Positions 5,797 through 54,368 of a stretch of DNA of 64,000 nucleotides are shown piece after piece (within the stretch, counting starts at the first letter, position 1; each line of letters starts with the position of its first letter). Made by a program: the position numbers and the translations under genes. The stretch comes from a virus, in IMG/VR virus record IMGVR_UViG_3300030397_000361, positions 25-64,024 of that record; one strand, given 5' to 3'. The notes beneath the pieces are model-generated. The model saw only the letters and a program-made list of their open reading frames with translations. It was not told the origin of the DNA and did not search any database.

Positions 5797-6502
5797 GCCG
5801 CTTCTCCCGTTCCATTTCTTTCCGATGATCTTCTGAAATTAGCGCCTGTGTTGCGTTTGGCATTAACTGAGAGAGCATCATGCAGCCGATCTCGAATTTA
5901 GATCGGCTTAAAAACTGCTCTGACGTTTCGCCTAGCTTGACTATCAAATCCCAAGTCATTTGAGGAATCCAGGCGTATGATATGTCTGATCCTTCCAGGT
6001 TTTGAAAGGCATCAAAAAGCGATACTTCCTTTTTCTTGCCTTGCCAAAGTTCGTCAGCAAGCTTTTTGAGATAGTCAGCATCGGGCAAGTCGGGTGTCAC
6101 TGCTGTGTGCACAGCGTCCCAATCTTGCCAGGTTTCTATCAAACTCCTGTCATCTTCCGCAACGCAATGCTCAAGGATGTATTGCTCTATCTGCCGAAAG
6201 TAGGCAGACAGGGCTTCGGCTTGATCCTGATAATGGGCAATGCCATTTTGCCAGCGAAGATGTTCTTGCCACTGATACCACTCTCTGGTTTTTTCTTCGC
6301 ACTCTTCTAGCGGTTTATCGGGCTTTGGCCGAACAGTCGTTATGTCGAAAACCTGTTCGTATATTTGGCCGCTGGCAAATAAAATTGTAACGCGATAGTG
6401 CCCCGGTATCTGGCTCCGGGGCACGTTGTATTCAAGCTCAAATAAAGCAAGGCTTTCGACTTGAATGATCTTTCCACTTGTCAGCGTTACATCAACTAGC
6501 AT
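5783..6502 (-). CDS. Putative tail assembly chaperone
   Basis: 239 aa acidic helical protein directly after the major tail protein; called on position only. Confidence 0.45.
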   Translation of the reverse strand: MLVDVTLTSGKIIQVESLALFELEYNVPRSQIPGHYRVTILFASGQIYEQVFDITTVRPKPDKPLEECEEKTREWYQWQEHLRWQNGIAHYQDQAEALSAYFRQIEQYILEHCVAEDDRSLIETWQDWDAVHTAVTPDLPDADYLKKLADELWQGKKKEVSLFDAFQNLEGSDISYAWIPQMTWDLIVKLGETSEQFLSRSKFEIGCMMLSQLMPNATQALISEDHRKEMEREKRLAHA

Positions 6503-8022
6503 CAGGCAGTAGCAAAATACTTGTGAATGATCCCCGTAGTGCCATCATCATCGCCGACAATCCAGGCTTTGTTGTCATTAATCGAGCTAAAGTAAGCGTC
6601 GTTATATCCGCTGTTGGTCAGGTTAGTCACTTCGTCGAAGTAATCACCATCATAAGTGCGCCAAACGTCACCTTCATTGCCCGAGGTATCACTGACCACA
6701 AGGTCAACGATATGCCCATCGCCAGCCAAGATTCGATTGCCGTGGGCCTTCATGCGCCGGACAACGTGATTGGTCCCGAAATCCTTTTTCTGTGTCCACT
6801 GGTTGGCTAGAGTTGGGCTTGGGTTTCTGGACAAAAACACCTTGTCCCCGTTCCCAAGCCAAATACCTTCACGAGTTACTTGAATAGCAGTCGAAGGGCT
6901 TGAGCCAGTCGGACCCGTTAGCGATGCACTCAAGGTTTTGCCGGTGGCATTGCCTTTGAGCAGCGTATTAGATGCGCCGCAACCGTACACGATGCCGTTC
7001 TCATCGACCGTTAGCTGATTAATCTGGTTCCCGCTGTAGGCTTCGGTCGGGAATGATACGCCTGCGTCTTCGCTCAAGAAAACCTTGCCGTTATCATCAG
7101 CAACGTACAGCCTTGTTAGCCTGTGCCAAAAAATAGCGGTGACAACATCGCCATTGTTGCTGCCAACGTTTACCGTTGTCCAGCTTGTCGTGCCTTCATC
7201 GCCAAGCGTAATCACCGCTCTGGCAATCTCACCTGGGTTGCTGACATCGGTCGTTATGCGGCTGGCAATGAGTACAAACTGCGTGGCGTTCAGGCGATGA
7301 ACGGCTAAATAACTGATATGCTCATCGGTGCCGAATGGGTCAGCCGAAACATTAGCCCAAGTGTCGCCGCCATCGGTGGTGTATTGTATTTTTGCCGTAG
7401 CAGATGATCCAGCGTCAAAGGCCATGTAGCCGATCTTGTCAGGACCAGGGTAGCCATTGCCACACTCTGCCCAAGAAATATCTTCGCTCAAAAACACGAC
7501 GCTGTTTATATCCGTGGTCAGGGCTGTTGTTGCCTGAGTCAGTGATGACTTATGCACCCAGGCGAAGCGGGGCGAAACGTAAGGAACGCTATGGTCAAGC
7601 GCCGCATTGGTGAACGTTTTATCCACATCTGATACAGACGCATCGCCTGCTGTGGGCTTTGACCAGTGCATAACCCAATCGGGATCAGACGGAACATCCA
7701 GGCTGTTGCAGCCGCTTCGCCGTAATTGAATGTAGGGAAGCGAGCCTATGTGGTGCGCCTCATCTACGGCATCAAAGGCCGCATTCAGATACTTATCAAT
7801 AGTGATCGTGGCGTTACCAGGCGTTCCTGTTTCCTCATCCAAGGCAATCGCCCGCCCATTTTCATCTTGACCGTACACAACGGTTAAGTCTCCGTCGCCG
7901 GGAACATTTAGACCGCTGAATCCAGCCTCGTGCAGTTGAAATGGTTGGGCTTGCTCAAAGTCGCCATCAATAGGCAACCATATCACAAGCTCGTTTGCTT
8001 TTGCTCTTGTTACCGGCATCAC
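6502..8022 (-). CDS. Major tail protein with C-terminal Asp-box beta-propeller
   Basis: N-terminal tail-tube-like region; Asp-box-like motifs YTTDGGDTW, FLSEDAGVSF, WRTYDGDYF; follows the neck genes. Confidence 0.6.
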   Translation of the reverse strand: MMPVTRAKANELVIWLPIDGDFEQAQPFQLHEAGFSGLNVPGDGDLTVVYGQDENGRAIALDEETGTPGNATITIDKYLNAAFDAVDEAHHIGSLPYIQLRRSGCNSLDVPSDPDWVMHWSKPTAGDASVSDVDKTFTNAALDHSVPYVSPRFAWVHKSSLTQATTALTTDINSVVFLSEDISWAECGNGYPGPDKIGYMAFDAGSSATAKIQYTTDGGDTWANVSADPFGTDEHISYLAVHRLNATQFVLIASRITTDVSNPGEIARAVITLGDEGTTSWTTVNVGSNNGDVVTAIFWHRLTRLYVADDNGKVFLSEDAGVSFPTEAYSGNQINQLTVDENGIVYGCGASNTLLKGNATGKTLSASLTGPTGSSPSTAIQVTREGIWLGNGDKVFLSRNPSPTLANQWTQKKDFGTNHVVRRMKAHGNRILAGDGHIVDLVVSDTSGNEGDVWRTYDGDYFDEVTNLTNSGYNDAYFSSINDNKAWIVGDDDGTTGIIHKYFATA

Positions 8023-10601: not shown

Positions 10602-12008
10602 CTACGATGCAACTTTTTGGACTGCCATTCGCCACGGCTCTACCGTTTGACCGCCTAAGCGTCGGCGCATCTCGTACTTGACAATGTTTTCGCCGGGGTT
10701 GACATCGTAACGCTGCACAGACATCCCTACACGGTCAACGATCATGTAGGCTTCAGGATCACCGAATAGGATCGGGAAGGCGTTAGCCGCTACATCGGGC
10801 ATTGATTCTTGCTCAAGTACGGGGTAGCCGCGCAAGGTATTAGGCGTGCCAGCGGCATTGTTCCCGCGCATCTCTGTCCAGAAGTACGCGCCGTCACTGT
10901 CAGCCAAAACCGCAATAGCCTCAAAAGTGGCTCGGTTAGCGATCCAGGCGGCACGTTGCCGGTACTGGGCCGCAATCTCAAAGGTGAGCCGGATCAAGCC
11001 CGTAAAAGTCAGGGCTGATGCGTTGCCACTGTTTTGCTCGGACAAGCTGTTGCCATTGGCACTGCCTGGCAGTAAGCCTTGTGGCTTCCCTGCACCCGTG
11101 CCAACCAAGAAGGTGTTGTCCTCATTGATAGCAGCGGCTTGGGCAAATTGACGCACCAGATAGCCACCAAGCTCAAAGGCGCTGTCTTCCAGCAAGTTCT
11201 TGGACAGCGGAACAAGCCCCATTGCGGTGTGAATGGGGATGTTTTCCAGTCCAAAGGTAAGGTTAGTTTCGCTTGCGCTACTGGTGGGCGTTTCATCTAC
11301 CCAGGTTTCGCGGACTGCGCCCACATACTGATCGTCGCCCCCCGTTGCTTTGGGGAACTGAACGCGATCACGGCTAGTTCGTTCGGTTTGGGCACGTCCA
11401 CGCATTGCCGTAAGACCGGGCAGACGCTCAATAACTCGTGCCTGAAAGTCAACTGGAACAACGAAGCCGCCCAGGCTGTCTACCGCTTCAACCATTGTTG
11501 ACTTAAGGTGTTCGATTTCCCAGCCTTCCTCGATAGCTTTCTTGGTGTAATCCGGGGTCAGGACGATCTCGTGAAGCAGATCAAGCGATTTTTGATCAAG
11601 CGTGCGCTCGCGTCCGCGCATGTAAGCGATAAAAGCCTTCCACTGATTGGCCCGTTTCCACTCATAATCTGCGCCGTGCAAGTCAACCAAGATAGCCTTG
11701 ACCGCATTATCAGTTTCGCCGTAGCGCATCTGATAAATGGACTTGGCCATTAAATCCTTGGGGTCTTCCTCGCCCTTGGCGGCTTTAGCCTCTGTAGCGG
11801 GTTCAGCAGAAGGCAGTGGCGCTGGCATCTCTGGTTGATCCAGATCGGCCATCAGTTCGGCGGCTGACTTAGCGGCTTCGCCTTGCTCTTTGAGGTTTTT
11901 TGACTCCTCGATGAGCGTAGCGAACTGCTGCAAATCGCCGGACTCAGCGGCGGCTTTGGCTTCCTCTGCCTTTGCTTTTGCCTTTTTGAACAATTCTTTA
12001 TAGTTCAT
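10602..12008 (-). CDS. Major capsid protein (HK97 fold, with N-terminal delta domain)
   Basis: GGFVVPVDFQARVIERL, GTGAGKPQGLL, LRGYPV, FGDPEAYMIVDRVGMSV, RRLGG motifs. Confidence 0.95.
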   Translation of the reverse strand: MNYKELFKKAKAKAEEAKAAAESGDLQQFATLIEESKNLKEQGEAAKSAAELMADLDQPEMPAPLPSAEPATEAKAAKGEEDPKDLMAKSIYQMRYGETDNAVKAILVDLHGADYEWKRANQWKAFIAYMRGRERTLDQKSLDLLHEIVLTPDYTKKAIEEGWEIEHLKSTMVEAVDSLGGFVVPVDFQARVIERLPGLTAMRGRAQTERTSRDRVQFPKATGGDDQYVGAVRETWVDETPTSSASETNLTFGLENIPIHTAMGLVPLSKNLLEDSAFELGGYLVRQFAQAAAINEDNTFLVGTGAGKPQGLLPGSANGNSLSEQNSGNASALTFTGLIRLTFEIAAQYRQRAAWIANRATFEAIAVLADSDGAYFWTEMRGNNAAGTPNTLRGYPVLEQESMPDVAANAFPILFGDPEAYMIVDRVGMSVQRYDVNPGENIVKYEMRRRLGGQTVEPWRMAVQKVAS

Positions 12009-12025: not shown

Positions 12026-13555
12026 CTAAACGTTGTTTGCTTCTAATTCAACAAGTAGCAGATTGGCCTCGGCTTGAGCCATTGCCTTTTTGACCTCATC
12101 AGACGCCCCCGCGTCTTCGGATTCAGCATCAAGGCAAATACCTTTGGCTTGGCATATTTCTGCCACCTGGGGAATGTCATTAGCCAACGCCTTAAGCGTT
12201 GAAAGTTGGTTGCCCTCGATCATGCGAGGTTCCATCGGGGTAAAAGTCAGCGTGTCACGGCGAATTGGCCACACGCGAATTTCGCCATTGTCGCCTTTTT
12301 GCACGGCTGATGATACGGCCTCGCTTGAGGTGCCGATCCAGCCCTTTTCAAACACGCCCAACTGTTCAAGCATTTGAATGTAGCGATTACGGCGGTTCAG
12401 GGCACGTTGCACCCATAGCCCGGTGCCGTCTTTGGTTGCGGTATTCCACAAGACCCGCCCAAGCGGCTCATCGCGGCCTGGCCCTTCTCTGTCTGGTTTG
12501 CGTCCGTGTTCAAAATCAACAACAACAGCGTCCACATCGGTGTAATCGCTGCCAAAGGTTGTGTTTTTGGTGAAGTATTCGCCTTTGGTTCCATCGGGGT
12601 TTACGTTGTTGCTTAATTGGCCTTCCAGATCGCGCCCGCCCCACAAAGCAATGTAGTTGCCAACAATGATCGCGTCATCGGTCTGAGAAATGGCCTTTAA
12701 GGCATTGCTTGGGGCAAGTGCTGCCTTGTAAGCGGGTTCGTCGTGGTCAGGGTCGTCGTTTTTCATCCCTTCCTTATCACGATCTTCACCGCATTTGGCT
12801 CCCAACCCCTTAGTCATATCGTGAATACCTTGAATAGTCTCTTGATCCTCGCGGTTGTTACGCCGCCCTGCTTTGGCGGCTTCATCGTCATCGCCTGCTA
12901 CAGCGCCCCACGAGTCGCAAACATAGCCAACGTCATAGTTGAAGCGATATTCGGAGCAAAGCCGATCATCGTTATTACCAAAACGACAATTGCTACACTT
13001 GATATTACCTCGTGAGATGTGATAGTTTGGCGCATCTTCGCGCCCCTTTGTGGCCTTTACGCGTTCAAAGCCGCCCTCAAGCTTTAGCTCGTGGCGCTCG
13101 TCGCCTATGGCCAGCGACAATGTGTCAATCTCAAATTCGACAGAAGGCAGGGTGCTGATAGGGGAAGGCTCATCAGGAGCCAAATAAGCCAAAGTGATGT
13201 GCGGGGTAAAGCCGTGCTGTTTTGAGATTTTCACATCGGCTTCATCTTCCCAGCGCAAGGTGGAGATAAGCGCCTCTCGGAATCGAGTTAGCTGTACGCT
13301 ATCAATGGACGCATAAAAGGGTTCTCGTTCATCATCTCGTGACGCATTGAAGCGCCCAACGCCGCTAATCCGTGCCGTGAATGGCACTTGATGCTGTGCC
13401 CACTGTGCGACCGTGTGCTTTAGCGCCTCAGTGTCTTCAACGTCTTCTAAGGGAACAAGCGTAATATGAAGATCATTAATCGCTTCGCCTTCTGGCAGGG
13501 CGATGCGTTGAGCCACTTGCGGCGGGAGAAAAATACCTAGTATTCCTGACGGCAT
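12026..13555 (-). CDS. 2H phosphoesterase fused to Cys-rich linker and prohead protease/scaffold
   Basis: Two HxT motifs (LHITL, PHITL) in the first ~130 aa; CSNC..C..C segment; C-terminal EYFT..., DFEHG, GTSSEA, TLTFTPMEPR prohead-protease-like motifs; upstream of the MCP. Confidence 0.8.
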   Translation of the reverse strand: MPSGILGIFLPPQVAQRIALPEGEAINDLHITLVPLEDVEDTEALKHTVAQWAQHQVPFTARISGVGRFNASRDDEREPFYASIDSVQLTRFREALISTLRWEDEADVKISKQHGFTPHITLAYLAPDEPSPISTLPSVEFEIDTLSLAIGDERHELKLEGGFERVKATKGREDAPNYHISRGNIKCSNCRFGNNDDRLCSEYRFNYDVGYVCDSWGAVAGDDDEAAKAGRRNNREDQETIQGIHDMTKGLGAKCGEDRDKEGMKNDDPDHDEPAYKAALAPSNALKAISQTDDAIIVGNYIALWGGRDLEGQLSNNVNPDGTKGEYFTKNTTFGSDYTDVDAVVVDFEHGRKPDREGPGRDEPLGRVLWNTATKDGTGLWVQRALNRRNRYIQMLEQLGVFEKGWIGTSSEAVSSAVQKGDNGEIRVWPIRRDTLTFTPMEPRMIEGNQLSTLKALANDIPQVAEICQAKGICLDAESEDAGASDEVKKAMAQAEANLLLVELEANNV

Positions 13556-14934: not shown

Positions 14935-15613
14935 GTTTTTCTACCTCCAGCGGATCCCATTCTTTCGACAGGTTGACACAATCCTGGCAATGTTCGGCCT
15001 TGCCAAGCTTCCAAAAAACCTGCCATAGTTTATCAGTTTCCTTGATGCGAAGATGGCACCGGCAATTGGCCTTGCATTGCGTGTTTCCATCGCCTGGGTA
15101 CTGCCTTAGCCTGGGAACGCCTCGCCCTTCTGTTTTGGCGCGTTCAAATGCTTGGCTTGATGCTTCGATGTACATATTGGCCCTGGCTGCAACTGCGCCG
15201 ATGCTGTCTACCGTGTAGCGCCCGGAGGCAATGTCTTGAGCAAATCCGCGCAGAAATTCATATTGCCTGCGCAACATAAAGCCAAGTCGCCCGTAATCGG
15301 CCTGAGTCATATTATTGCGCCCGCCTCGCCCAAGCATATACTGAGCCACAAACACCGTCTTTATATTATTCCGCATCTCGGCTTCCCACTGCTGAATGGT
15401 AATCCGCTTGTCAAACAGGCGACGATGAACGACTTCAAGCCGTTGCTTGTAGCGGTCGTTGAACTGATCGCGCAATGCAACAGCTTGTGTGATGCGCAAA
15501 AAGCGCCCGTCACGACCTCGGTATCTTTGTGCGGCATCGTCCCACACCCAAAGCGGTGAGGGTGAAGCTTGCTTGTATTCGGTTTCTCGCACATCGCTAA
15601 ATACAGCCATCAA
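14924..15613 (-). CDS. MuF-like head morphogenesis protein
   Basis: Follows the portal; C-terminal PGDGNTQCKANCRCHL motif. Confidence 0.7.
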   Translation of the reverse strand: MMAVFSDVRETEYKQASPSPLWVWDDAAQRYRGRDGRFLRITQAVALRDQFNDRYKQRLEVVHRRLFDKRITIQQWEAEMRNNIKTVFVAQYMLGRGGRNNMTQADYGRLGFMLRRQYEFLRGFAQDIASGRYTVDSIGAVAARANMYIEASSQAFERAKTEGRGVPRLRQYPGDGNTQCKANCRCHLRIKETDKLWQVFWKLGKAEHCQDCVNLSKEWDPLEVEKLGN

Positions 15614-17235
15614 ACCTCAGCGTCTAAAACGCCCTCGTGTTCTGGCATTAGGTCATCCCATTGAGCAGTGGTTTCATTCAGGAACCTGGAAGTTTGAACC
15701 TCTTCGCCCAGCCTGTCTGATTGCGGTAAGTCATCAAACAATTGATCTGCCCCCTCGGGGATGAACATTTCAGCGGCTTTGCCGTTCGTGCCAAAAGCGG
15801 CTTTTATCTCTTCCTCGGTGGTTGCCCTGAGCAAAGCAGTTTTTATGGCGGCTTGTTTGCCAATATCAATGTGCTGGCTTTCAAAATCATACCCCCCCGG
15901 CTGTTCCCCTCGTTTCAGCATTCGCCTGGCCACGGACTCCCATCGCTTCAGGTCGGCTTTCTCTTCGCGTTCGCTCTCTTCCTGTGCTTGCTGAACGCCA
16001 TTACCTCTTTGGACTTTTATTTGAGCGATGGAAGCCGCCGCCTCGTAGGGTGCATCGCCGATGTCTGGATCGGGGTGTGGCGGTCTTCCCTTGGCCTCGC
16101 GGGCCTCATTGTACGTCATTGTGCGCCGCTCGTTTTCTTCCTTGCGAATATCTTGCTCAACATTGGCGGGCCGGATGTCTTCAAACACAGCGCGGTATTG
16201 GTTGCCGTAGTAGGGCTGTACCATTTGGATGGTGATGTCTTCGGCAAGCATCTGCATAAGCGGCCAAACAGTATCGTTGATAAGCGCCTGGTTGTGAACG
16301 TGGGCGCTTGCTTCGGTTGCGTTGCGTTCCCAAATGGCATCAGGTACGCCATAGATGTCATTGGCCTGACTTTCGGTAAGCTCGAAAACGGACAGGCTAA
16401 ATTCGTTGCGCGGCGAACTGGTAGACGCTACCGAAATATCGCCAGCTCGTATCACTTTCCACCGTGCCCCAGCCTCGTTTGCCTCTCGCAAGTCTGCCTG
16501 GGCCTGCACAAACTGCGTGCGTGACGTGTCTTGACGCACGCTGATAAGCTGCTGAAGGTTTAGCTTGTTCTGGAAATCGTCAAGCTGTGTTTTTTGGGCT
16601 TCAATGTTGGTTCTAAGCCCCATCAGATAAGCCGAAATTGGCGATAACCCCCGATGATAGTCGAAAGGATTAAAGAAGCGATGGAAACAGACCTGCTCGG
16701 GCTTCAAGAAATTGGGCGGTTGCCCATTGACAGGTGTATACCAATAGCCTCGAAACATCTCTGCTTGGCCAGGGATAGGCTGCACTCTGTTGGCGGGTAA
16801 GGGGTAAACACTGTTTAGCTCGCCGCCTCGGGTGGGCACGAGCATCCAGTACGCCTCCCCACGAAGCAATAGCCAAGCTACTTGATACATCCAGATAAAC
16901 GATTGCGACATCCAGCGATTAGGGCGATACTCTATGATCTCCTCAAAGGGATGCGCCGTGATGTCTTGCCACTTTTCGCGGTTGTCATTGTCGCGCTCTT
17001 GGACCTTGGCCGTACCGCCAGCAACCATTTTGGCTATCTTCATAATATTGCGGTAGACGGCGTAGTTGGTCATTGCCAGCTTTTCAAATTCTTGTGATGA
17101 ATAAGCGGCAAATGGCTGATCCTTGCCCGGTGTTATTTCGCCTGTCAGGGCGACAGGCATCCTCACATCCCCTGCCTTTACATAGCCAAGGCTGCCAACA
17201 AAGCGATCTACTGTGTTTTTGACGATATTAAACAT
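15610..17235 (-). CDS. Portal protein (HK97-like)
   Basis: RPNRWMS, LLRGEAYW, YPLPANRV, VCFHRFFNPFDYHRGLSPI, YGVP, MTYNEARE motifs; probable start MFNIV at 17235. Confidence 0.93.
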   Translation of the reverse strand: MFNIVKNTVDRFVGSLGYVKAGDVRMPVALTGEITPGKDQPFAAYSSQEFEKLAMTNYAVYRNIMKIAKMVAGGTAKVQERDNDNREKWQDITAHPFEEIIEYRPNRWMSQSFIWMYQVAWLLLRGEAYWMLVPTRGGELNSVYPLPANRVQPIPGQAEMFRGYWYTPVNGQPPNFLKPEQVCFHRFFNPFDYHRGLSPISAYLMGLRTNIEAQKTQLDDFQNKLNLQQLISVRQDTSRTQFVQAQADLREANEAGARWKVIRAGDISVASTSSPRNEFSLSVFELTESQANDIYGVPDAIWERNATEASAHVHNQALINDTVWPLMQMLAEDITIQMVQPYYGNQYRAVFEDIRPANVEQDIRKEENERRTMTYNEAREAKGRPPHPDPDIGDAPYEAAASIAQIKVQRGNGVQQAQEESEREEKADLKRWESVARRMLKRGEQPGGYDFESQHIDIGKQAAIKTALLRATTEEEIKAAFGTNGKAAEMFIPEGADQLFDDLPQSDRLGEEVQTSRFLNETTAQWDDLMPEHEGVLDAEV

Positions 17236-17237
17236 AA

Positions 17238-18800
17238 TTAAACCCAACCTATCATTGTTTCTTCGATTGGCGCGAAGGTGAGGCATAGGGCGTCTGCACG
17301 GTCTGGGCTGCGCTTGAGCAAGTCCTTCATTACATCCTTGCTCATCACCTTGATCTTGCCATTAATGATTGCGTACTTTGGCGTTGTTAATTCTTCGATC
17401 AAATACTCATCAGGCGGCAACATCGCGCCTGTATCTGTTCTAAGCCACTCTCGCGCAGACCACCACAATTGATCCCGCATGTTGCCAAACTCACCCATCT
17501 CAGTGCTGTAAGTTGGGCTACTGGCCACCTTGACACCTGTAGCCGCGCAGTCAAGGCGGCTCATCTTGGGAGCTACGCCAGCGCCAACGCCAGTGGCGTC
17601 TATCATCGCGCCGGATGCTTTGTGCTGATGATACAACTCAGCCGCTTTGCTACCGGTCAGATCAATATCCATTCCAGACCAAGAGATGAGCGGCTTCACC
17701 CATCCACCATAGCGGAAACAAGCAACGTTCGCATCTGCGCCGAACTCGGCTACATCTTGCCCCATCAGCGGGCTAATGCCTTTGGGCGGCACTTCGCCAT
17801 TCTCGGCTACGTATAAATCCCATCTGCTGCGAGCGTCATTGATCCACGACCGGCTAATCAATTGCGACTCGCTTAAGGCGCTGTACTTGCCCAATACCAT
17901 ATAGCTGAAGGCGGGGTTCGTGATCTTGCGCCAACCACTGGGCAGGGGCGGGTACTCTTTGCCGCCAAGCGACTGACAGGTTAGCCCCACGAGATAAGGA
18001 CACTCTTCGTCAACGCTAAAGCATTCCTGATCCGGCTTTTCGCCATTCGCAAGCGCCCTTGTCCATTCGTTGATCCGGCGCAAGGTCTTTTCTTGATCCA
18101 CTGCGCCAGGGATAACGTCATTGCCTGTTACAACGTTTGGGTGTCTAAACGCCGACAGTTCGACAACATTACCTAATCCGTCGCGTTCCATCCGGTAAAC
18201 GGGGCCTGACTCGTGGCGCGGGTTAAACATAATCAGCAGGCGGGCGTGCCCACCTGACATACAGCTTTCAATACCACTGTAAACCTCATCCGGTATCGCA
18301 TCGCCTTCGTCAATGACAAAGAGCAAGTAGGGCGCGTGTTTTCCGCTGAATTTGGCCTCGCGTTGGGCTGATGTGCCCGACATCGGAATTGTTACGCCGG
18401 TGATAAAGCTTTGCGGATCACGTTCAATGTGCAAGGTCAGAACACGGTCGTCGGAAAACAAAGCGGGGTTCTCCGATGCGATTGCGCCTAGCTCGCCCCA
18501 TAGCAACAAGCGCAGGTTGTTTACTGGTGGAGCCGCCGTGGTGTAAACCTGGCTGTTCTCAAAGGCTTTGTAAAACCAAGTCACAACACGGGCCGCGGCG
18601 TGGGTCTTGCCAACAGCATTAGCACTCCGAGCAATCGTGACAGGGTAATCACGCACCGAGTTCATGACCGCGATCACGTCATCGGTGTACGCTTCGCCTA
18701 AGACCTCCTCGCCAAAAAGGTGCGGGCTATTCTGATATTTCAGGTGCGGATTGATCTTCGGGCGGGATTTCGTCTGTCGCCGCCTCCGCTCGATCTCCAT
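17238..18800 (-). CDS. terL: Terminase large subunit
   Basis: Walker A ARSANAVGKT, Walker B FVIDEGD, coupling motif FNP, nuclease GQDVAEFGAD, SPDRADAL; probable start MEIE at 18800 (ORF track 18851). Confidence 0.93.
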   Translation of the reverse strand: MEIERRRRQTKSRPKINPHLKYQNSPHLFGEEVLGEAYTDDVIAVMNSVRDYPVTIARSANAVGKTHAAARVVTWFYKAFENSQVYTTAAPPVNNLRLLLWGELGAIASENPALFSDDRVLTLHIERDPQSFITGVTIPMSGTSAQREAKFSGKHAPYLLFVIDEGDAIPDEVYSGIESCMSGGHARLLIMFNPRHESGPVYRMERDGLGNVVELSAFRHPNVVTGNDVIPGAVDQEKTLRRINEWTRALANGEKPDQECFSVDEECPYLVGLTCQSLGGKEYPPLPSGWRKITNPAFSYMVLGKYSALSESQLISRSWINDARSRWDLYVAENGEVPPKGISPLMGQDVAEFGADANVACFRYGGWVKPLISWSGMDIDLTGSKAAELYHQHKASGAMIDATGVGAGVAPKMSRLDCAATGVKVASSPTYSTEMGEFGNMRDQLWWSAREWLRTDTGAMLPPDEYLIEELTTPKYAIINGKIKVMSKDVMKDLLKRSPDRADALCLTFAPIEETMIGWV

Positions 18801-19272
18801 ATCCGCTTGAAGTTGCAATGACAAAGTAGGGGTCTTCTCCCTTTGACACACGCTCTAACTGCTCGTCCGTCATCTTGGTAACATCAATGTTTAATGTTTG
18901 CGTTTGGTTGCGCTGCTTGGGCGGCGCGAAGCTGTCGGGGAACTTTTGCTCAAGCATATACTTAGCCCAGGCAGGATCAACCGTCGCCGCATTGTCGATC
19001 ACATTAAGCCAACCTATGCCTGCGTCTGCCTGAGCTTCCTCTATAGACTGCAATAACTTAAGACATAGCTTTGTGTATCTGTCACCGGACGGTTTCGCCT
19101 CCGGGTCATTGTCCAGCCGCTCTTTTTCAGCCTCGCCAACACGTTTCCACAGGTAAAATGCCCCCTCAGAAACGCGGGCGTAGGTGTACGCCATTTTGTA
19201 ATCGGCACCGATAGAAATGGCGGCGCAAATCTCTTCTATTACTTTGTTCGATAATTTATATTTTCTAGCCAT
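18727..19272 (-). CDS. terS: Terminase small subunit
   Basis: N-terminal HTH (EEICAAISIGADYKMAYTYARVSEGAFYLW), AWAKYMLEQKFP; directly upstream of terL. Confidence 0.8.
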   Translation of the reverse strand: MARKYKLSNKVIEEICAAISIGADYKMAYTYARVSEGAFYLWKRVGEAEKERLDNDPEAKPSGDRYTKLCLKLLQSIEEAQADAGIGWLNVIDNAATVDPAWAKYMLEQKFPDSFAPPKQRNQTQTLNIDVTKMTDEQLERVSKGEDPYFVIATSSGYGDRAEAATDEIPPEDQSAPEISE

Positions 19273-19550: not shown

Positions 19551-20006
19551 TTATTTCCGTCCCAAAACAAAGGACTTAAGCCGCTGTGACGTGCGGCCCT
19601 GCGTAGTAAGCCGCTCTTCTTGTAGTTCGATACCTTGCTCGGCTGCGATCTTCAATCCGTTGAGGTATTTGTCACCGTATTTAAGCCAGTCCATTGCTAT
19701 CAAGAATTGCTCTTTTTGCTCTCTGGACTGGAAGTAAAGACAACACCAGTACTCAGTATCCACAGCTACATCAAAGCGGCGCTTGTCGGCCTTCTCCTGC
19801 TCTTTGAGGGTCTTTAGGATTTCCCCCTCTTCGGCCTTGGTGTCGTCTGCAATGTCTCCGGTGTAATCTATGTTGTCGAGCGGGTTATCGGCTCCCGCTG
19901 GGTCAAACAATCCGTCTAAGTTGGCCTTGCTGACCTTGGTCTTGCGACGTTTGATCGTGTTGCCGGACTTGCCGATTTCCGGCTTCTTCTTGAGATTAAG
20001 ACTCAT
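19551..20006 (-). CDS. Hypothetical partner of the PAPS-reductase-family protein
   Basis: Coupled to the upstream gene; acidic/basic N-terminal region then DTEYWCCLYFQSREQKEQFL; probable start MSLNL. Confidence 0.7.
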   Translation of the reverse strand: MSLNLKKKPEIGKSGNTIKRRKTKVSKANLDGLFDPAGADNPLDNIDYTGDIADDTKAEEGEILKTLKEQEKADKRRFDVAVDTEYWCCLYFQSREQKEQFLIAMDWLKYGDKYLNGLKIAAEQGIELQEERLTTQGRTSQRLKSFVLGRK

Positions 20007-20712
20007 ATCTAAGTAACTCCATTTCAGCCAACGGGAACCATTCAAGAATGCGCTCCCAATCGGCGGGGTAGTGGTCGTGAATTGGTTTCAAGAATCGGTA
20101 GTCCATTCCATCATATGAACGCCCAAATAATTCGTAATCCACTGACAGCTTGATTTGATGTCGCTTTAGCAACTCAACCAACTCATCCATATACATGTCC
20201 CAAATAGGATAGAAATATCGACGTTTGGCATTGATCGAACCACGCTGTTTGATGGCCGTTCGACGCATCATATTGTCTGGGGCACGAATGCCAGTGGCAC
20301 ACCAGGGGTCGGGCAATTCGTAGACACGTCCCAGTATTTCGTTGATGTCATCGTAATCAAAAACGTGCAAATTCATTGCTCGAATCTTGGCCACGCGCTC
20401 AGGCGTTTGATAACTGAAGTTGGCCAGCATCCGGTAGAACGTGGGATGAGGCAGGCGGACGATCTCTTGATCGAACCATCTCTCGTAATAGTCGAGCGTC
20501 TCCTCGACAAAAGAAATGTCGGGGATGCGATACAGATAGAACGGAATGATTTCAAAATGATCCATTAACTCTAGCCATAGGGCCACCGAATCCTTACCGG
20601 CACTGAAGGACAAGAGGATAGTATCCACGCCTAAATCATCCTTCATATATTTGATTGTATCCTGACGGTTTAGCACTTCGCCGTCAGGATAAAAGCCAGG
20701 ATAATCCGTCAT
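19996..20712 (-). CDS. PAPS-reductase / adenine-nucleotide alpha-hydrolase family protein
   Basis: PP-loop LSFSAGKDS, ATGIRAPDNMMRR, YPIWD motifs. Confidence 0.85.
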   Translation of the reverse strand: MTDYPGFYPDGEVLNRQDTIKYMKDDLGVDTILLSFSAGKDSVALWLELMDHFEIIPFYLYRIPDISFVEETLDYYERWFDQEIVRLPHPTFYRMLANFSYQTPERVAKIRAMNLHVFDYDDINEILGRVYELPDPWCATGIRAPDNMMRRTAIKQRGSINAKRRYFYPIWDMYMDELVELLKRHQIKLSVDYELFGRSYDGMDYRFLKPIHDHYPADWERILEWFPLAEMELLRYES

Positions 20713-20828
20713 ACAGTGAAATTCCCTTTCCCATCACCTATCCCAAACTCTACCGCAATTACATTCATAATGTACACAGGTGTTTTTTTGTTCGGTCGTT
20801 TATTCCAGTACTCTTCATTATATTTCAT
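20709..20828 (-). CDS. 39 aa small ORF coupled to the PAPS gene
   Basis: CAGGAG SD; MKYNEEYWNKRP...GDGKGNFTV; ATGA overlap with the next start; below the ORF-track cutoff. Confidence 0.45.
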   Translation of the reverse strand: MKYNEEYWNKRPNKKTPVYIMNVIAVEFGIGDGKGNFTV

Positions 20829-20918
20829 AATCACACGTCTCCTGTCTGTAATTAATTTGTCTTCATTGTAAATCATAACGTTACCGTTATAAATAGGCCA
20901 TAGGTACTATTCTTACTC

Positions 20919-20947
20919 TGGACAATTCATAACGGTTGTGATATGAT
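20919..20947 (+). promoter_or_regulatory. Promoter of the amidoligase cassette
   Basis: TGGACA-17-TATGAT with extended -10 TG; spacer contains TAACGGTTGTG, shared with the promoter at 23362. Confidence 0.7.
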
Positions 20948-21000
20948 TTATACAGTAGTTCATAACGATAACGTTACCAACTGACAGGAGATTACAAAAA

Positions 21001-21774
21001 ATGTTCGTACACGGTAAAAATTTGACCTTTGGGATCGAAATTGAGTGTCACATACCTACCAATCGTTACACTCACGGCCAACTGAGATTCCGTAAACGTA
21101 GTTTCACTTTGGATGGCATCTCAGGTTGGAAAATCGGCACCGACAGTTCATTAAGTCACATCAACGGCCATCATTCAATCGAAATCTGTTCCCCTCCATT
21201 AAGTGGTATAGATGGTCTGTCACAGGTCGTCACCGTACTCGATTATCTGAATTCAATTAACACAATCGTTTCTCAGTCCTGTGGTATCCACATCCACGTA
21301 GACGGAAAACATCTGGAACGGGCAAATTTAGACGGTTTGATCAACTCGTTTTTGAGATACGAAGACCTGTTTTTCTCGACCAATGGTACACAGTCACAAC
21401 AAAGATTTTCATCTAGTTTCTGCAAACCGTTTAACCCTCGGCACCCTGGTGACAGATACCAGTCACTCAACATTTCAAACGTTCACCGTAACCCGACCAA
21501 AAATACCGTTGAATTTCGTTTATTTAAGTCAACCCTCGACCCCGAAACCGTTTTTACTTGGTTGTATATGTGTGTCGGGTTGGTCAGTCGAGCCACCAAA
21601 ACAACACGGCCCGTTCGTGTCCCCCGGAATGTCACCACATTTGAGAAAATCGAGTCTTTTGTATCTCAGGTGTTCTCCAAAAAAACCTATCAGATCGACC
21701 CCGATTACGCACCCGATAAAAATGATAGTCTGTATCAAGTTCTATTCAACGAAGTTCCCCTGTCAACGATTTAG
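21001..21774 (+). CDS. Putative amidoligase (COOH-NH2 ligase type 2)
   Basis: FGIEIE, TDSSL, EICSPPL, CGIHIHVD, RYQSLN, TVEFRLF motifs. Confidence 0.88.
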   Translation: MFVHGKNLTFGIEIECHIPTNRYTHGQLRFRKRSFTLDGISGWKIGTDSSLSHINGHHSIEICSPPLSGIDGLSQVVTVLDYLNSINTIVSQSCGIHIHVDGKHLERANLDGLINSFLRYEDLFFSTNGTQSQQRFSSSFCKPFNPRHPGDRYQSLNISNVHRNPTKNTVEFRLFKSTLDPETVFTWLYMCVGLVSRATKTTRPVRVPRNVTTFEKIESFVSQVFSKKTYQIDPDYAPDKNDSLYQVLFNEVPLSTI

Positions 21775-21789
21775 TTAGTGTTTAGATTG

Positions 21790-21818
21790 GTACCGGTTTC
21801 AATACTTGAAACCGGTAC
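21790..21818. repeat. Perfect 13-bp inverted repeat between amidoligase and GGCT
   Basis: GTACCGGTTTCAA-TAC-TTGAAACCGGTAC. Confidence 0.8.
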
Positions 21819-21863
21819 TGATGTGTACATTAACCCAAAATTCAACCGTAGGAGGTTTTTATT

Positions 21864-22253
21864 ATGTACGATGTGTTTGTTTACGGCACCCTGATGAAAG
21901 ATCAACCCAATCACAAATTTTTAATCGGATCACAGTTCATTTCTCGTGGTCTGGTTTACGGTCAGATGTATCGGTTATGGTCGTTTCCTGGTCTAAAAAT
22001 GGACACAGGGAAAGAATTTAGACCGTATTGGGGTGAGGTTTATCGGGCGGATGATAAGACCCTGTCCAGACTGGACATTCTGGAAGGACATCCCAATATG
22101 TACACCCGAACCACGGTGAAAATCATTAATGAATCGGGCGATCTTCAGGTCTGTTTCATTTATCTTTACAATGGTTCAGTGGAGTCAAAAAACTTGGTTT
22201 TGAGTGACTCCTGGCCAAACGATGTCAACCAAATTTTAGCAATAGGAGCATAA
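21864..22253 (+). CDS. Gamma-glutamylcyclotransferase (AIG2-like)
   Basis: VFVYGTLM, WGEVY, LSRLDILEG, YTR motifs. Confidence 0.9.
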   Translation: MYDVFVYGTLMKDQPNHKFLIGSQFISRGLVYGQMYRLWSFPGLKMDTGKEFRPYWGEVYRADDKTLSRLDILEGHPNMYTRTTVKIINESGDLQVCFIYLYNGSVESKNLVLSDSWPNDVNQILAIGA

Positions 22254-22257
22254 ACTT

Positions 22258-22683
22258 ATGGCAACTCGTAGCAACGTAGTGATTAAATTCCCTGGCACCT
22301 CTGATGTTTATCTGTGTCGACATTGGGACGGTTATCTATCTGAGAATGGCGCAATTGTGGCCATCGCAGCCCGCAAACTCGCTGAAGGATCGTTAAACAC
22401 TGACAACATTGTTGATTGGTTTACCAATCAACAATATGAAGGCCGTCCATTGTATCACCTGACAGACGATATTCACGGCGACATTGAACACCTGTATTAC
22501 ATCGAATTGACCGAACGTGGCAATGTGATTGTGTCTCACGGGCAAGGATATGGAGAAAACATACCAGTTAAACGATACAAGGTGTCAACCTTCATTAAAA
22601 AGATCAACGCCAATCGAAGGTCAATCAATCGTCGCTTTGATCCAAACGAGTGTCAATACCGAATGTTAAGACAGCCTCAATAA
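22258..22683 (+). CDS. Hypothetical protein
   Basis: 141 aa, RHWDGY motif, GGAG SD. Confidence 0.7.
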   Translation: MATRSNVVIKFPGTSDVYLCRHWDGYLSENGAIVAIAARKLAEGSLNTDNIVDWFTNQQYEGRPLYHLTDDIHGDIEHLYYIELTERGNVIVSHGQGYGENIPVKRYKVSTFIKKINANRRSINRRFDPNECQYRMLRQPQ

Positions 22684-22733
22684 CCAAGCCCTTTACCCTT
22701 CGCCCGGTTGGTGGTTAAACCGGGCTTATTATT

Positions 22734-23372
22734 ATGAAACAACTAAAACTATTCCATAAACGGGTTTTGACTACCAGATCAAACCGGTTTGAAGACTTCA
22801 AGCAATTATTTGATTGTTTAGGTGTAGACCTGATCCCCATTCGCACCCTAGATCAAGCCAGGAAGGCGAAAGGCGATTTCGTTCTACTCACCGGAGGGCC
22901 AGACATAAACCCCTTTTTTTACGGCGAGACAAACACCGATGCCCGATTCGTTGACAAAAACAGAGACATTTTAGACTGGACTCTGTGTCGCCGGGCCTTG
23001 TCTGAAAAATTACCTCTACTCGGCATATGTCGCGGTATGCAGATGATCAATATCGCCTGTGGCGGCTCACTGCATCAAGACATTTACCGGGCAAAAGTAA
23101 CGAAAAAGCACCCATCATATCATAAAATACACTCGTGCTATCCTTTGTGTGACCATATCCCAACCGGAAAAGTCAATTCCAGGCACCACCAAGCAGTTAA
23201 AGCGGTTGCCCCAGGACTTGACGTGATCGCCACTTCGACCAAGGACAATATCATTGAAGCCATTTACGCGCCGGGAATCTTGGGCGTACAATGGCATCCT
23301 GAAGACCTTTGGGCCAGCGACTACAAATGGCAATCGCTGTTTGATTGGTTTCTCAAGGGTCTTGAATGTTAG
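22734..23372 (+). CDS. Class I glutamine amidotransferase, peptidase C26 (gamma-glutamyl-GABA hydrolase-like)
   Basis: LLTGGPDINP, LGICRGMQ (catalytic Cys), NSRHHQAV, GVQWHPE (His-Glu). Confidence 0.92.
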   Translation: MKQLKLFHKRVLTTRSNRFEDFKQLFDCLGVDLIPIRTLDQARKAKGDFVLLTGGPDINPFFYGETNTDARFVDKNRDILDWTLCRRALSEKLPLLGICRGMQMINIACGGSLHQDIYRAKVTKKHPSYHKIHSCYPLCDHIPTGKVNSRHHQAVKAVAPGLDVIATSTKDNIIEAIYAPGILGVQWHPEDLWASDYKWQSLFDWFLKGLEC

Positions 23373-23390
23373 TAACGGTTGTGTTACAAT
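23362..23390 (+). promoter_or_regulatory. Promoter of the cassette HTH gene
   Basis: TTGAAT-17-TACAAT with TAACGGTTGTG in the spacer. Confidence 0.7.
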
Positions 23391-23412
23391 CTTGTCCAAG
23401 GAGGCGCTAATT

Positions 23413-23706
23413 ATGGACGCTATTAAAGACTTGCTGAAAGATTGGGACAGACTCAACAAGAGACAAATCAAGGAGCGGCTAATCACTCTTGTACTAGAGG
23501 GCAAGCAGGAGCCTATTTTGTCCGTTTCTGATATGGCCCAAGAGCTTGGCATTGCTGAAATCACCGTTCGGGTCAAAGCGGCTAAGAATGGCATCGGGAC
23601 GAAGGTAAATCCCAAAGCCTGGGTTTTCCGTCCAAGCGACGTTGATTTATTTAAGGCCATTCCAAGCACCCCAGGCCCGAAGCCGAAAAAACCAATAGAC
23701 GACTAA
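23413..23706 (+). CDS. HTH DNA-binding protein (excisionase/MerR-like HTH)
   Basis: AAGGAGG SD, start MDAIK; LSVSDMAQELGIAEITVRV. Confidence 0.75.
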   Translation: MDAIKDLLKDWDRLNKRQIKERLITLVLEGKQEPILSVSDMAQELGIAEITVRVKAAKNGIGTKVNPKAWVFRPSDVDLFKAIPSTPGPKPKKPIDD

Positions 23707-23707
23707 G

Positions 23708-23751
23708 AAAAAGGACTGAGGCAAGTTTAACCCCGCCCTCAGTTCTTTTTT
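23708..23751. terminator. Bidirectional terminator at convergent genes
   Basis: A-tract, ACTGAGG...CCTCAGT stem, T-tract. Confidence 0.7.
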
Positions 23752-23789
23752 ATGGAATTTGTAAATCATCTCCTCAGTTTTAATGTCGC

Positions 23790-24068
23790 TCAAAGTTCCT
23801 CATTTTCTGCGCTCTTATAAATATCAACGATCTCCAGCGCAACCGATTCGCCAACTCTTAACAGGTCATCATCTTTCAACTTGAAAGGCCAAAACCTATC
23901 CATTGCCAGCGTGACGACCATCGAGCCATCATCAGAAAGCGTGATGTTATGTCGCTTGCCTCCGGTTGGCGGCAATAGCTCATTGAGTTTTGTTAGTAGT
24001 CCGTGCGCGTGTTTCAAGATACCTCTTTTCGCTATATGGTCACACAACTCCAGAAGAAGTGTAACCAT
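23790..24068 (-). CDS. Hypothetical protein
   Basis: Probable start MVTLL just after the upstream stop (ORF track 24317). Confidence 0.5.
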   Translation of the reverse strand: MVTLLLELCDHIAKRGILKHAHGLLTKLNELLPPTGGKRHNITLSDDGSMVVTLAMDRFWPFKLKDDDLLRVGESVALEIVDIYKSAENEEL

Positions 24069-24072
24069 AATT

Positions 24073-24348
24073 TCAGTGAATTTCGCCGACCAAAACCCAA
24101 TTGCCGTTCTTGTCAATGTCGTAAATTGGTCGCTTATCGCCGCCAACCTGAATTGCAATTGATGTGCTACTGGGGCGGCTTGATTCAATCGTCGATGCCC
24201 AGTCAGCACCAAGCCAATGCGGAGCAGGCTTGCATTCTCCATCTGGCACCTTGACACTAACCGCAGTCTCGTCTGCTTCGCCTTGCCCTGCAACCAATGA
24301 GCCTGCAATGGCGGCAATCGCGCCGCCTAGAAATGTTCTACGTTTCAT
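24073..24348 (-). CDS. Small protein with twin-arginine (Tat)-type signal
   Basis: MKRRTFLGGAIAAIAGSLVAGQGEA. Confidence 0.6.
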   Translation of the reverse strand: MKRRTFLGGAIAAIAGSLVAGQGEADETAVSVKVPDGECKPAPHWLGADWASTIESSRPSSTSIAIQVGGDKRPIYDIDKNGNWVLVGEIH

Positions 24349-53390: not shown

Positions 53391-54368
53391 ATGACTATGG
53401 AAAGTATACGCAAGTCACCCGATTTTAACAACCTAATACCAGTCGGATTCGACCCTGGCAACGGTTTCGCCAAAATCGCGTTACTAGGCAAAGTCGCCAA
53501 GCTTCCAGCCAATTTCAGCTACACTCAGCCCGATGGCGAATTGTCGGCCAAAACGCTGGCCAGGATCAAGCCCAAAGCTTTTTCAATTATCGCAGATGGC
53601 CGCGAACTGTGGTTCGGCCTCGATAGCCTGAGCAACGGCAATGGCAGAGCTATCGACCAGGCCAAATATCACGCTGACTATTTGCGCCCATTGTTTGCGG
53701 CCTCATTGGTGCAATGGTTCAAACAGCATCGGCAAAGCCCTGATATGTTGGACGGCAAGCGGCTGAATGTTGTGGCGTCAATGCCGCCCGAGCTATACCA
53801 GGACAAAGCGACGCGCACCAAAACCGAACGGGCCTATGCTGAAACATTCAACCATCGTATTGACTGGCAGGTCAAGAATAGCCAGGTTGACACGTTTCAG
53901 CTATTCACGCAGTTTCAACAGGTCACGCCGGAAACGCTCACGTATATGTCGGTCAACCTGGCTAAAGCTGGCTACACCGTGGTGTTTGACCTCGGTTATG
54001 GGACGCTCGATATAGCGATCTTCGCGGCTGGCAGTGACGTGCCAGTGATGACAAAGAGCTTGAATAAAGGATTGCTGCACGCATTTTCGAGCATTAATGC
54101 GCTGGCAGTCAACCAGGTCGAACTTGATATTCTGCGCTCCAAATCCTACGACCGGCTGAACGATTACTTCAATGAGGTTCGCACCATCGTGCAAACAGTG
54201 ACGCGCAAACTGCCTGAGCCATTGAAGCTGGTAGGCATCGGCGGCGGCGTAAATCTGATGAGCAAAGCAGCACGCGATAGCTTCAACCTGGCGTTTAGTG
54301 GCTTGATATTTAAGGACGAATTTACAAACGCCAGGGCAAGCGAGAGGGTTGCCAGAAGTGCGTTATAA
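53391..54368 (+). CDS. parM: ParM/StbA actin-like partition ATPase
   Basis: Phosphate-1 GFDPGNGFAK; VASMPP; phosphate-2 FDLGYGTLD; adenosine GIGGGV; FTNARA. Confidence 0.88.
   Translation: MTMESIRKSPDFNNLIPVGFDPGNGFAKIALLGKVAKLPANFSYTQPDGELSAKTLARIKPKAFSIIADGRELWFGLDSLSNGNGRAIDQAKYHADYLRPLFAASLVQWFKQHRQSPDMLDGKRLNVVASMPPELYQDKATRTKTERAYAETFNHRIDWQVKNSQVDTFQLFTQFQQVTPETLTYMSVNLAKAGYTVVFDLGYGTLDIAIFAAGSDVPVMTKSLNKGLLHAFSSINALAVNQVELDILRSKSYDRLNDYFNEVRTIVQTVTRKLPEPLKLVGIGGGVNLMSKAARDSFNLAFSGLIFKDEFTNARASERVARSAL

Follow-up and report, generated by a model that had tools for sequence, protein, structure and literature searches.

A five-gene amidoligase cassette opposite the packaging genes of an aquatic metagenomic phage

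The cassette and its gene products

The window analysed here, which means the whole stretch of 64,000 nucleotides, covers almost all of a 64.4-kb phage record in IMG/VR that is approximately 75% complete and comes from an aquatic metagenome. Based on open reading frame (ORF) calls, most of its genes lie on the minus strand. The subject of this report is a cassette of five plus-strand genes, g1 to g5 (21001-23706), which sits in the gap at 20713-23790 and runs against both flanks. Genes for a PAPS-reductase-like protein (hereafter PAPS-like), the small and large terminase (terS and terL) and the portal lie on one side and unknown genes on the other. All of these flanking genes are on the minus strand, in line with the original prediction of a unit inserted against the late operon. 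That prediction described five visibly AT-richer genes with promoters and a terminator of their own. The genes, their orientation and the predicted signals stand; the AT-richness is real but modest, and it is not unique. The guanine-plus-cytosine (GC) content is 44.2% in the cassette and 49.4% in the window. Genes g1 to g3 have 42-44% GC, approximately 1.6-2 standard deviations (SD) under the mean of 73 ORFs (0.495, SD 0.035), and several other genes of the window are equally low.

Three of the five products match enzyme families in Pfam with their catalytic residues intact, as was originally assigned: an amidoligase (g1), a cyclotransferase (g2) and a class-I amidotransferase/hydrolase (g4). 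The g1 protein scores 75.8 bits against Amidoligase_2 (cutoff 22) and matches the PHROG family 'amidoligase enzyme' at 2.8e-25. It holds all of the residues that are invariant in the family (E13, E15, D48, S50, E61, H97, H99, N157, E171 and R173). The ExE (E13/E15), HxH (H97/H99) and ExR (E171/R173) motifs are invariant or nearly so across an alignment of 33 homologues. The AlphaFold2 (AF2) model of g1, with a predicted local distance difference test (pLDDT) score of 90.7, matched 83 PDB chains at E<=1e-3 in Foldseek. The 50 matches listed all have the glutamine synthetase (GS) fold (GS, GmaS, YbdK, glutathione synthetase and Dop), with template modelling (TM) scores by query of 0.42-0.52; at the top stand glutamine synthetases, GmaS (gamma-glutamylmethylamide synthetase), YbdK and Dop. 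By sequence, g1 has no match in PDB and no NCBIfam equivalog. The structure model gives g1 the GS fold, and the protein is a putative carboxylate-amine ligase, catalytic core only.

The g2 protein scores 86.1 bits against GGACT (cutoff 22.8) and carries YGTL at residues 7-10. Its PDB matches by sequence are 2kl2, 1vkb, 3jub (mammalian GGACT) and E. coli YtfP (1xhs). In the alignments with 2kl2 and 1vkb, residue E74 falls on the Glu of the LDxFE motif, the catalytic Glu82 of human GGACT. By these matches g2 is probably a GGACT / AIG2-like gamma-glutamylamine cyclotransferase. In one group of phage loci, GGACT is fused to a C-terminal DUF4314 domain (L089, 5506-6432, 308 aa; handles of this kind denote loci used for comparison).

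The g4 protein scores 138.6 bits against Peptidase_C26 (cutoff 20.5), and in an alignment its triad Cys99-His188-Glu190 is invariant in nine cassette homologues. The best PDB matches by sequence are stand-alone hydrolases at 73-88 bits: Lin1909, the P. aeruginosa 'probable glutamine amidotransferase' and E. coli PuuD (PDB entries among the matches are 3fij, 7d4r, which is the P. aeruginosa protein, and 6vtv). Synthase-coupled glutamine amidotransferases (GATases), represented by GMP-synthase subunits, reach at most 36 bits. Among NCBIfam models PuuD is again the best at 74.9 bits, with all others at or below 44; the score falls short of the PuuD equivalog cutoff of 266, and g4 appears PuuD-like rather than a PuuD orthologue. 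Because the PuuD-type matches far exceed those to synthase-coupled GATases, g4 appears to be an enzyme that hydrolyses gamma-glutamyl amides and not one that donates ammonia. Thus, of the two roles originally offered for g4, supplying ammonia or removing gamma-glutamyl groups, the first has become less likely and the second is favoured. A complex prediction for g1 with g4 gave a score of 0.00, which weighs neither for nor against binding.

Of the five genes, g3 lies outside this chemistry and is not a constant member. The g3 protein matches nothing in Pfam, PHROG, NCBIfam or PADLOC. It belongs to a widespread, mostly viral family of approximately 150 aa (167 representatives at E<=1e-3), in which the polar motifs MSTRxN (N-terminal), YRHxDGY and HGDIEH are strongly conserved. 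Its AF2 model has a pLDDT of 96 and no convincing solved relative in PDB (Foldseek E>0.07; VIA Z<=4.7). Matches in AFDB and Atlas are only to uncharacterised, mostly viral proteins, with one Atlas cluster fused to WYL_2. A g3-like gene lies inside the cassette of L096 (2495-2992, minus strand). In L094 the g3-like sequence is part of a longer protein (6145-6924, plus strand; 259 aa), of which it makes up the N-terminal half and whose gene adjoins the PAPS-like gene. We rejected g3 as a constant component of the cassette: it is absent from L005, L007 and L009-L011, and homologues in L012 and L013 have no amidoligase nearby. The g3 protein ends in Gln, and the C-termini of its family are not conserved.

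All five cassette proteins are predicted to be soluble, with no transmembrane, signal-like or hydrophobic segment in any of them. PADLOC gave no matches for g1-g5 or the PAPS-like protein. With the same solubility and PADLOC results in view, we find nothing in support of the receptor masking or anti-defence in the carrier state that had been proposed for the cassette.

Conservation in related phages and partners of the ligase

The closest amidoligase homologues were drawn from a set of 5.8 billion proteins. Ligase, GGACT, C26 and helix-turn-helix (HTH) genes occur together in five phage contigs besides the window, with the gene order altered. The order is Amidoligase-GGACT-C26-127aa-PAPS_reduct in the P0003 contig and Amidoligase-114aa-GGACT-C26-HTH in L005/L006, where the cassette is divergent from the PAPS-like gene. 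In L007/L008, GGACT is on the opposite strand and is followed by Amidoligase-C26. A shorter version, Amidoligase-C26-HTH, is found in L009. The same divergent cassette as in the window was reached independently in L094 and L096 by a protein search with the PAPS-like protein. That search yielded L094, L095 and L096; a scan of viral contigs with the same protein found no relatives.

Cassette proteins are 35-50% identical between these phages and TerL proteins 49-71%. Based on these comparisons, the gene set has been kept despite much divergence and rearrangement, and the co-conservation on which the original prediction had staked itself is what we found. Because the terminases of the six loci with all three enzymes are related, part of this co-conservation is shared descent in one phage lineage.

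The genes next to the cassette help to define its position. Ahead of a conserved 164-aa gene (19551-20045), terS and terL lies the gene for the PAPS-like protein, which has a PP-loop (SFSAGKDS) and scores below the Pfam cutoff. L094, L095, L096 and L005 share this order of genes, at 47-65% identity. In L095 the backbone of PAPS-like, terS and terL genes is accompanied by other cargo in the slot (Table 1), so the slot upstream of the PAPS-like and terminase genes is a site of variable cargo. More distant cassettes adjoin TerL or ParB-methyltransferase genes. An arrangement like that of GMP synthase, in which the PAPS-like protein would work together with the GATase, was considered and not adopted because the packaging backbone accounts for the adjacency.

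On its predicted promoters and terminator, opposite orientation, modest GC contrast and presence or absence among related phages, the cassette resembles a moron-like unit. It is probably an accessory, self-regulated unit in a variable slot upstream of the packaging genes. It behaves as an accessory block, as expected of the self-contained unit originally described.

We surveyed the partners of the ligase in 88 loci, made up of 80 loci from IMG/VR that hold relatives of Amidoligase_2 (the scan gave at least 350 related stretches) and eight other loci. ORFs were searched with iterated hidden Markov models built from the cassette proteins, and the classes were confirmed by Pfam spot checks. A partner gene was found in the flank of 81 of the 88 loci, usually less than 1 kb downstream and on the same strand; three of these 81 have only a protein of approximately 140 aa that we call MID. 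GGACT is the only partner in 42 loci. A class-II GATase (GAT) is the only partner in 17, occurs with MID in eight and occurs with GGACT in five, two of which also have MID. C26 is found alone in four loci and with GGACT in two, and the remaining seven loci have none of these partners. The commoner GATase partner is thus class II (30 of 88 loci, against six with C26), as had been stated for related neighbourhoods, and the combination of C26 and GGACT seen in the window is rare. MID, which has no Pfam match, is encoded in 13 loci, and in most of them its gene is flanked by those for the amidoligase and the class-II amidotransferase.

In a tree of the amidoligases, partner type is strongly clustered, with 17 changes compared with 40 when partners are shuffled. 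The window falls in a clade of six members (Shimodaira-Hasegawa-like approximate likelihood-ratio test, SH-aLRT, 97), all with C26 and four also with GGACT, and the sister of this clade is a large class-II group. The ligase is thus nearly always accompanied by an enzyme for cleaving a gamma-glutamyl or glutamine amide, the activity common to three unrelated folds that interchange beside it: the N-terminal nucleophile (Ntn) class-II GAT, C26 and GGACT.

Predicted regulation and the surroundings of the cassette

Two promoter-like sites, P1 ahead of the cassette and P2 ahead of g5, carry in their spacers the exact 11-mer TAACGGTTGTG in identical register, and no other exact copy of it occurs in the 64 kb. 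The count of promoter-like sites in the region is not above that in shuffled sequence, so the promoter calls rest on position and the common box. A divergent site on the minus strand carries a related box, TAACGGTAACGTTATGAT, and forms with P1 an inverted repeat of 35 nt (77%). By its position, transcription from it would run through a small ORF into the PAPS-like and terminase genes, and the cassette and the packaging genes may have one common regulator. The small ORF (20709-20876, minus strand), downstream of this site, has a Shine-Dalgarno sequence AGGAGA and an ATG near 20828. In L005 and L094, TTGACA-type promoters precede the ligase and the terminal HTH gene; the two are alike within each phage and their sequences are unlike those in the window.

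The terminal gene, g5, is homologous to the terminal genes of L096, L094, L005 and L009. The match to the L096 gene is direct (blastp 3e-9), and those of L094 and L005 are linked by a chain through L096. Sequence comparison makes g5 a probable small HTH regulator.

A hairpin stands just behind g1, and one in the same position, with a different sequence, follows the amidoligase in L094, L096, L007 and L009 (z -3.9 to -8.4); in total, five of six related cassettes have it. It may be an attenuator or a stabiliser of the mRNA 3' end that sets the ratio of ligase to hydrolases. The GC-rich hairpin before g4, which is followed by UUAUUAUUAU, may act as an internal attenuator. The terminator-like hairpin behind g5 separates it from the convergent minus-strand gene at 23790-24317. 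An Rfam scan of 20500-24000 found nothing at E<=1.

Table 1. Positions of cassette genes, predicted signals, other genes of the window and selected features of related loci (positions refer to the window unless a locus is named)
Feature	Position	Strand	Details
g1	21001-21774	+	Amidoligase_2 PF12224, 6.4e-21 (Pfam); 257 aa
g2	21864-22253	+	GGACT PF06094, 3.4e-24 (Pfam); 129 aa
g3	22258-22683	+	no Pfam match; 141 aa
g4	22734-23372	+	Peptidase_C26, 3.3e-40, and class-I GATase, 6.6e-17 (Pfam); 212 aa
g5	23413-23706	+	weak HTH_17, 0.0035 (Pfam); 97 aa
P1, promoter-like	20919-20947	+	TGGACA, 17 nt, TATGAT, extended -10, 10/12; TAACGGTTGTG box in spacer at 20930-20940
P2, promoter-like, ahead of g5	23362-23390	+	TTGAAT, 17 nt, TACAAT; TAACGGTTGTG box at 23373-23383
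Divergent promoter-like site	20865-20893	-	TAACGGTAACGTTATGAT box at 20889-20872; faces small ORF, PAPS-like and terminase genes
Hairpin just 3' of g1 stop codon	21790-21818	+	perfect 13 bp, -34.4 kcal/mol, z -6.5, no U-tract
GC-rich hairpin, then UUAUUAUUAU	22702-22725	+	8 bp, -16.2 kcal/mol, z -2.4; ends 8 nt before g4 start
Terminator-like hairpin	~23714-23751	both	U-runs on both strands; z -4.1 (+), -3.8 (-)
Post-amidoligase hairpin, L094	4499-4608	-	
Post-amidoligase hairpin, L096	2993-3068	-	
Post-amidoligase hairpin, L007	6113-6238		
Post-amidoligase hairpin, L009	1170-1264		
Slot cargo, L095	4048-6300	-	DUF2958/LPD29 protein and four small ORFs
Major head protein	10602-12008	-	library matches
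Protease-like fusion	12026-13555	-	library matches
Portal	15610-17286	-	library matches
Large terminase (terL)	17238-18851	-	library matches
Small terminase (terS)	18727-19272	-	library matches
PP-loop PAPS-reductase-like protein	19996-20712	-	library matches
DnaC-like loader and replication initiator	33-35 kb	-	library matches
MID, L010	7955-8398		one of 13 loci
MID, L011	1640-2059		one of 13 loci
MID, L025	3919-4362		one of 13 loci; 10 further loci

Elsewhere in the window, the gene upstream of the major head protein gene, a protease-like fusion, has matches to 'RNA ligase' families of PHROG in residues 4-160 and to a family of head maturation proteases. The plus-strand ORF at 53391-54368 has a match in PHROG to a 'partition protein' family (1.3e-13). 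Of the window ORFs scanned, many of which match nothing at all, none could be recognised as an integrase gene. The partition-like ORF and the lack of a recognised integrase are compatible with a plasmid-prophage lifestyle and are not proof of it. Three DNA sequencing runs of one aquatic-metagenome study contain the stretch and are its possible source; there was no RNA run among the sequencing-run matches, and near-identical DNA was not found in the phage collection searched.

A proposed function and its alternatives

As in other phage amidoligase modules, the ligase gene of the cassette stands beside genes for gamma-glutamyl- or glutamine-amide-cleaving enzymes (g2 and g4) on the same strand. 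By its gene content the cassette is a compact member, of rare composition, of the modules predicted in 2009 (phiEco32, LUZ24, Laroyevirus). Amidoligase, GATase and GGCT genes are recorded in papers on LUZ24-like, OM43, Clostridium and Planctomycetes phages. All of these point to Iyer et al. 2009, to whom citing papers credit ideas of a modified cell wall, exclusion of superinfecting phages and secondary metabolites. An eLife paper of 2024 suggested that the Planctomycetes phage ZRK32 carries its genes for GATase, amidoligase, glutathione synthase and GGCT as auxiliary metabolic genes (AMGs). None of these papers reports a substrate of the modules, they offer only speculation on the target, and we found no experimental paper up to 2026. 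The original statement that the target is not established is borne out.

One of the closest known systems is that of the Arthrobacter phage Waltz (Laroyevirus-type), in which adjacent and co-directional genes (gp94-gp96) are annotated as gamma-glutamylamine cyclotransferase, amidoligase and glutamine amidotransferase, that is, the GGACT, Amidoligase_2 and amidotransferase types of the window. The window g1 matches the Waltz amidoligase at 2e-14 (tblastn). The amidotransferase of Waltz, however, is class II (GATase_6, Ntn fold), whereas that of the window is a class-I, PuuD-like C26 protein. In addition, the Waltz trio follows the replication genes at the end of the genome and lacks a terminal HTH gene, whereas the cassette described here opposes the packaging operon.

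The 'peptidoglycan modification' modules of the phiEco32/LUZ24/PA11 type likewise combine phage-borne GS-like amidoligases with gamma-glutamyl- or glutamine-amide-cleaving enzymes. In the PA11-like Pseudomonas phage vB_PaeP_FBPa8, for example, C26, class-II GAT, Amidoligase_2 and ATP-grasp genes form one block. The full phiEco32-type set was not found among g1-g5 or the flanking genes, which lack a second COOH-NH2 ligase, an ATP-grasp ligase and an Ntn class-II amidotransferase. The window has a single ligase and adds a dedicated HTH gene and sigma-70-like promoters. Its cassette is a divergent accessory unit in a phage with a partition-like gene and no recognisable integrase, whereas modules of the phiEco32/LUZ24/PA11 type lie in the early operon of virulent podophages.

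Two cellular systems are comparable. The PuuA/PuuD putrescine pathway of E. coli and the Pau/Spu polyamine pathway of Pseudomonas follow the same logic, in which gamma-glutamyl amines are made by a ligase of the GS fold and lose their glutamyl group to a C26 hydrolase of the class-I GATase fold. The g1 protein differs from the PuuA-type GS in being an Amidoligase_2 protein of 257 aa, and the window lacks the oxidising enzymes that act between ligation and hydrolysis in these pathways. PafA and Dop, which form a ligation and removal pair on the gamma-glutamyl-lysine isopeptide, share the GS-like carboxylate-amine ligase fold with the cassette. In contrast to that pair, no tag gene was found in the cassettes compared, and the remover has the C26 or GGACT fold and is not a Dop paralogue.

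We give approximately even odds (near 0.5) to the reading that the cassette encodes a system for making and removing gamma-glutamyl amides in the cytoplasm. The g1 ligase would join an ATP-activated carboxylate, most likely the gamma-carboxyl of glutamate, to an amine. The resulting gamma-glutamyl amide would be hydrolysed by g4 to glutamate and the amine, and g2 would remove the gamma-glutamyl group irreversibly as 5-oxoproline. By analogy with PuuA/PuuD, the target amine would most plausibly be a polyamine-like small molecule; side chains of lysine or diaminopimelate (DAP) in a peptide or protein are less likely. Transcription would start from host-type sigma-70 promoters, and g5 would probably act at the common TAACGGTTGTG box and so regulate both of them. 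How much ligase is made relative to the hydrolases may be set by the hairpins that follow g1 and precede g4.

Several points weigh against this reading. On paper, a ligase and two removers with no intermediate enzyme make a futile cycle, unless host enzymes intervene or substrates or timing differ. Ligases of the sister clade have a class-II amidotransferase as partner, and this is equally consistent with ammonia supply. The six loci with all three enzymes sit in phages with related terminases, and the promoters, terminator and operator are consensus-level predictions. We know of no Amidoligase_2 member with an identified substrate, and 'gamma-glutamyl' is applied to g1 from its partners and fold alone.

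The alternative that survives best, although we consider it unlikely, is glutamine-dependent amidation, in which g4 would be a glutaminase that hands ammonia to g1 and R-COOH would be converted to R-CONH2. The target could be, for example, the D-iso-Glu or DAP carboxyl of a cytoplasmic peptidoglycan precursor, modified in the manner of MurT/GatD, with an altered cell wall and a block to superinfection as the outcome; this is the interpretation most often echoed in phage papers. The g4 protein does retain the full Cys-His-Glu triad used by glutaminases, the GATases found most often beside the ligase in the sister clade are class-II glutamine amidotransferases, which occur also in the cultured phage Waltz, and the cell-wall and superinfection idea credited to Iyer et al. 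2009 is of this kind. The far greater similarity of g4 to stand-alone PuuD-type hydrolases speaks against it, as does GGACT, which would be left without a role despite being kept in six loci with ligase and C26 and being the only partner in 42. Nor does the cassette, with its soluble products, include a cell-wall or export component.

Tagging of proteins in the manner of Pup is less probable still. Here g1 would ligate the gamma-carboxyl of a C-terminal Glu, on a tag or protein, to lysines as PafA does, g4 would be the counterpart of Dop, as a deamidase or tag remover, and g2 would clear residual epsilon-(gamma-glutamyl)-lysine. The latter compound is the substrate of mammalian GGACT, and the nearest solved relatives of g2 are entries for mammalian AIG2-like domain-containing protein 1 (GGACT). 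The g1 model also matches Dop (4b0r, E 3.3e-4), and peptide tagging was reportedly proposed for related systems by Iyer and colleagues in 2009. The top fold matches of g1 are nevertheless metabolic GS and GmaS rather than PafA/Dop. A conserved small ORF with Glu or Gln at its C-terminus was also not found in the cassettes compared or next to them; g3 ends in Gln but is missing from several cassettes.

We regard as improbable a modification of DNA, nucleotides or a virion component that is linked to packaging and involves the neighbouring PP-loop protein. The PAPS-like gene is adjacent in five of the six loci with all three enzymes (the window, the P0003 contig, L005/L006, L094 and L096), and TerL or ParB-methyltransferase genes stand beside the more distant cassettes. 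This gene, however, is part of the packaging backbone: it is present in L095, where there is no cassette, and missing from L007, where there is one. The cassette has predicted promoters of its own and runs opposite to the PAPS-like gene in four of the five adjacent loci (the two are co-directional in the P0003 contig), and Pfam finds no base-excision, kinase, glycosylase or nucleotide-binding component in it.

Least probable of all is a set of AMGs boosting nitrogen, glutamate or glutathione turnover of the host. In its favour, the same kinds of genes are listed as AMGs in ZRK32. In addition, L094, which among long contigs has the nearest homologue of the PAPS-like protein, is assigned to a Planctomycetaceae metagenome-assembled genome. 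Against it, the ZRK32 paper (eLife 2024) gives correlation only, Amidoligase_2 is not a glutamine or glutathione synthetase (no NCBIfam equivalog, no PDB match by sequence), and a dedicated repressor-like gene in a cargo slot fits a conflict or lifestyle function better than housekeeping metabolism.

Returning to the making and removing of gamma-glutamyl amides, we tentatively put forward a broader version, which we think rather doubtful as a whole. In it, Ntn amidotransferase, C26 and GGACT would be equivalent removers, and all phage amidoligase modules would carry out reversible gamma-glutamylation of a cytoplasmic host amine, either polyamines or protein lysines. The window would then have the minimal form, with one ligase and two removers under the control of the cassette's HTH repressor, in a temperate phage that is carried like a plasmid. 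If this is true, the phage could reprogram host physiology while it is carried.

The cassette, intact, co-conserved and self-contained, is no surprise in itself. Amidoligase modules are common in phages, as the related stretches from the IMG/VR scan alone indicate, and since 2009 they have carried speculative labels: cell-wall modification, superinfection exclusion and nitrogen AMGs. Both partners of g1 in the window point to cleavage of gamma-glutamyl amides rather than supply of ammonia. With three small soluble enzymes and its own predicted regulator and promoters, the cassette offers a minimal experimental handle, and finding its substrate would probably account for the larger cassettes as well.

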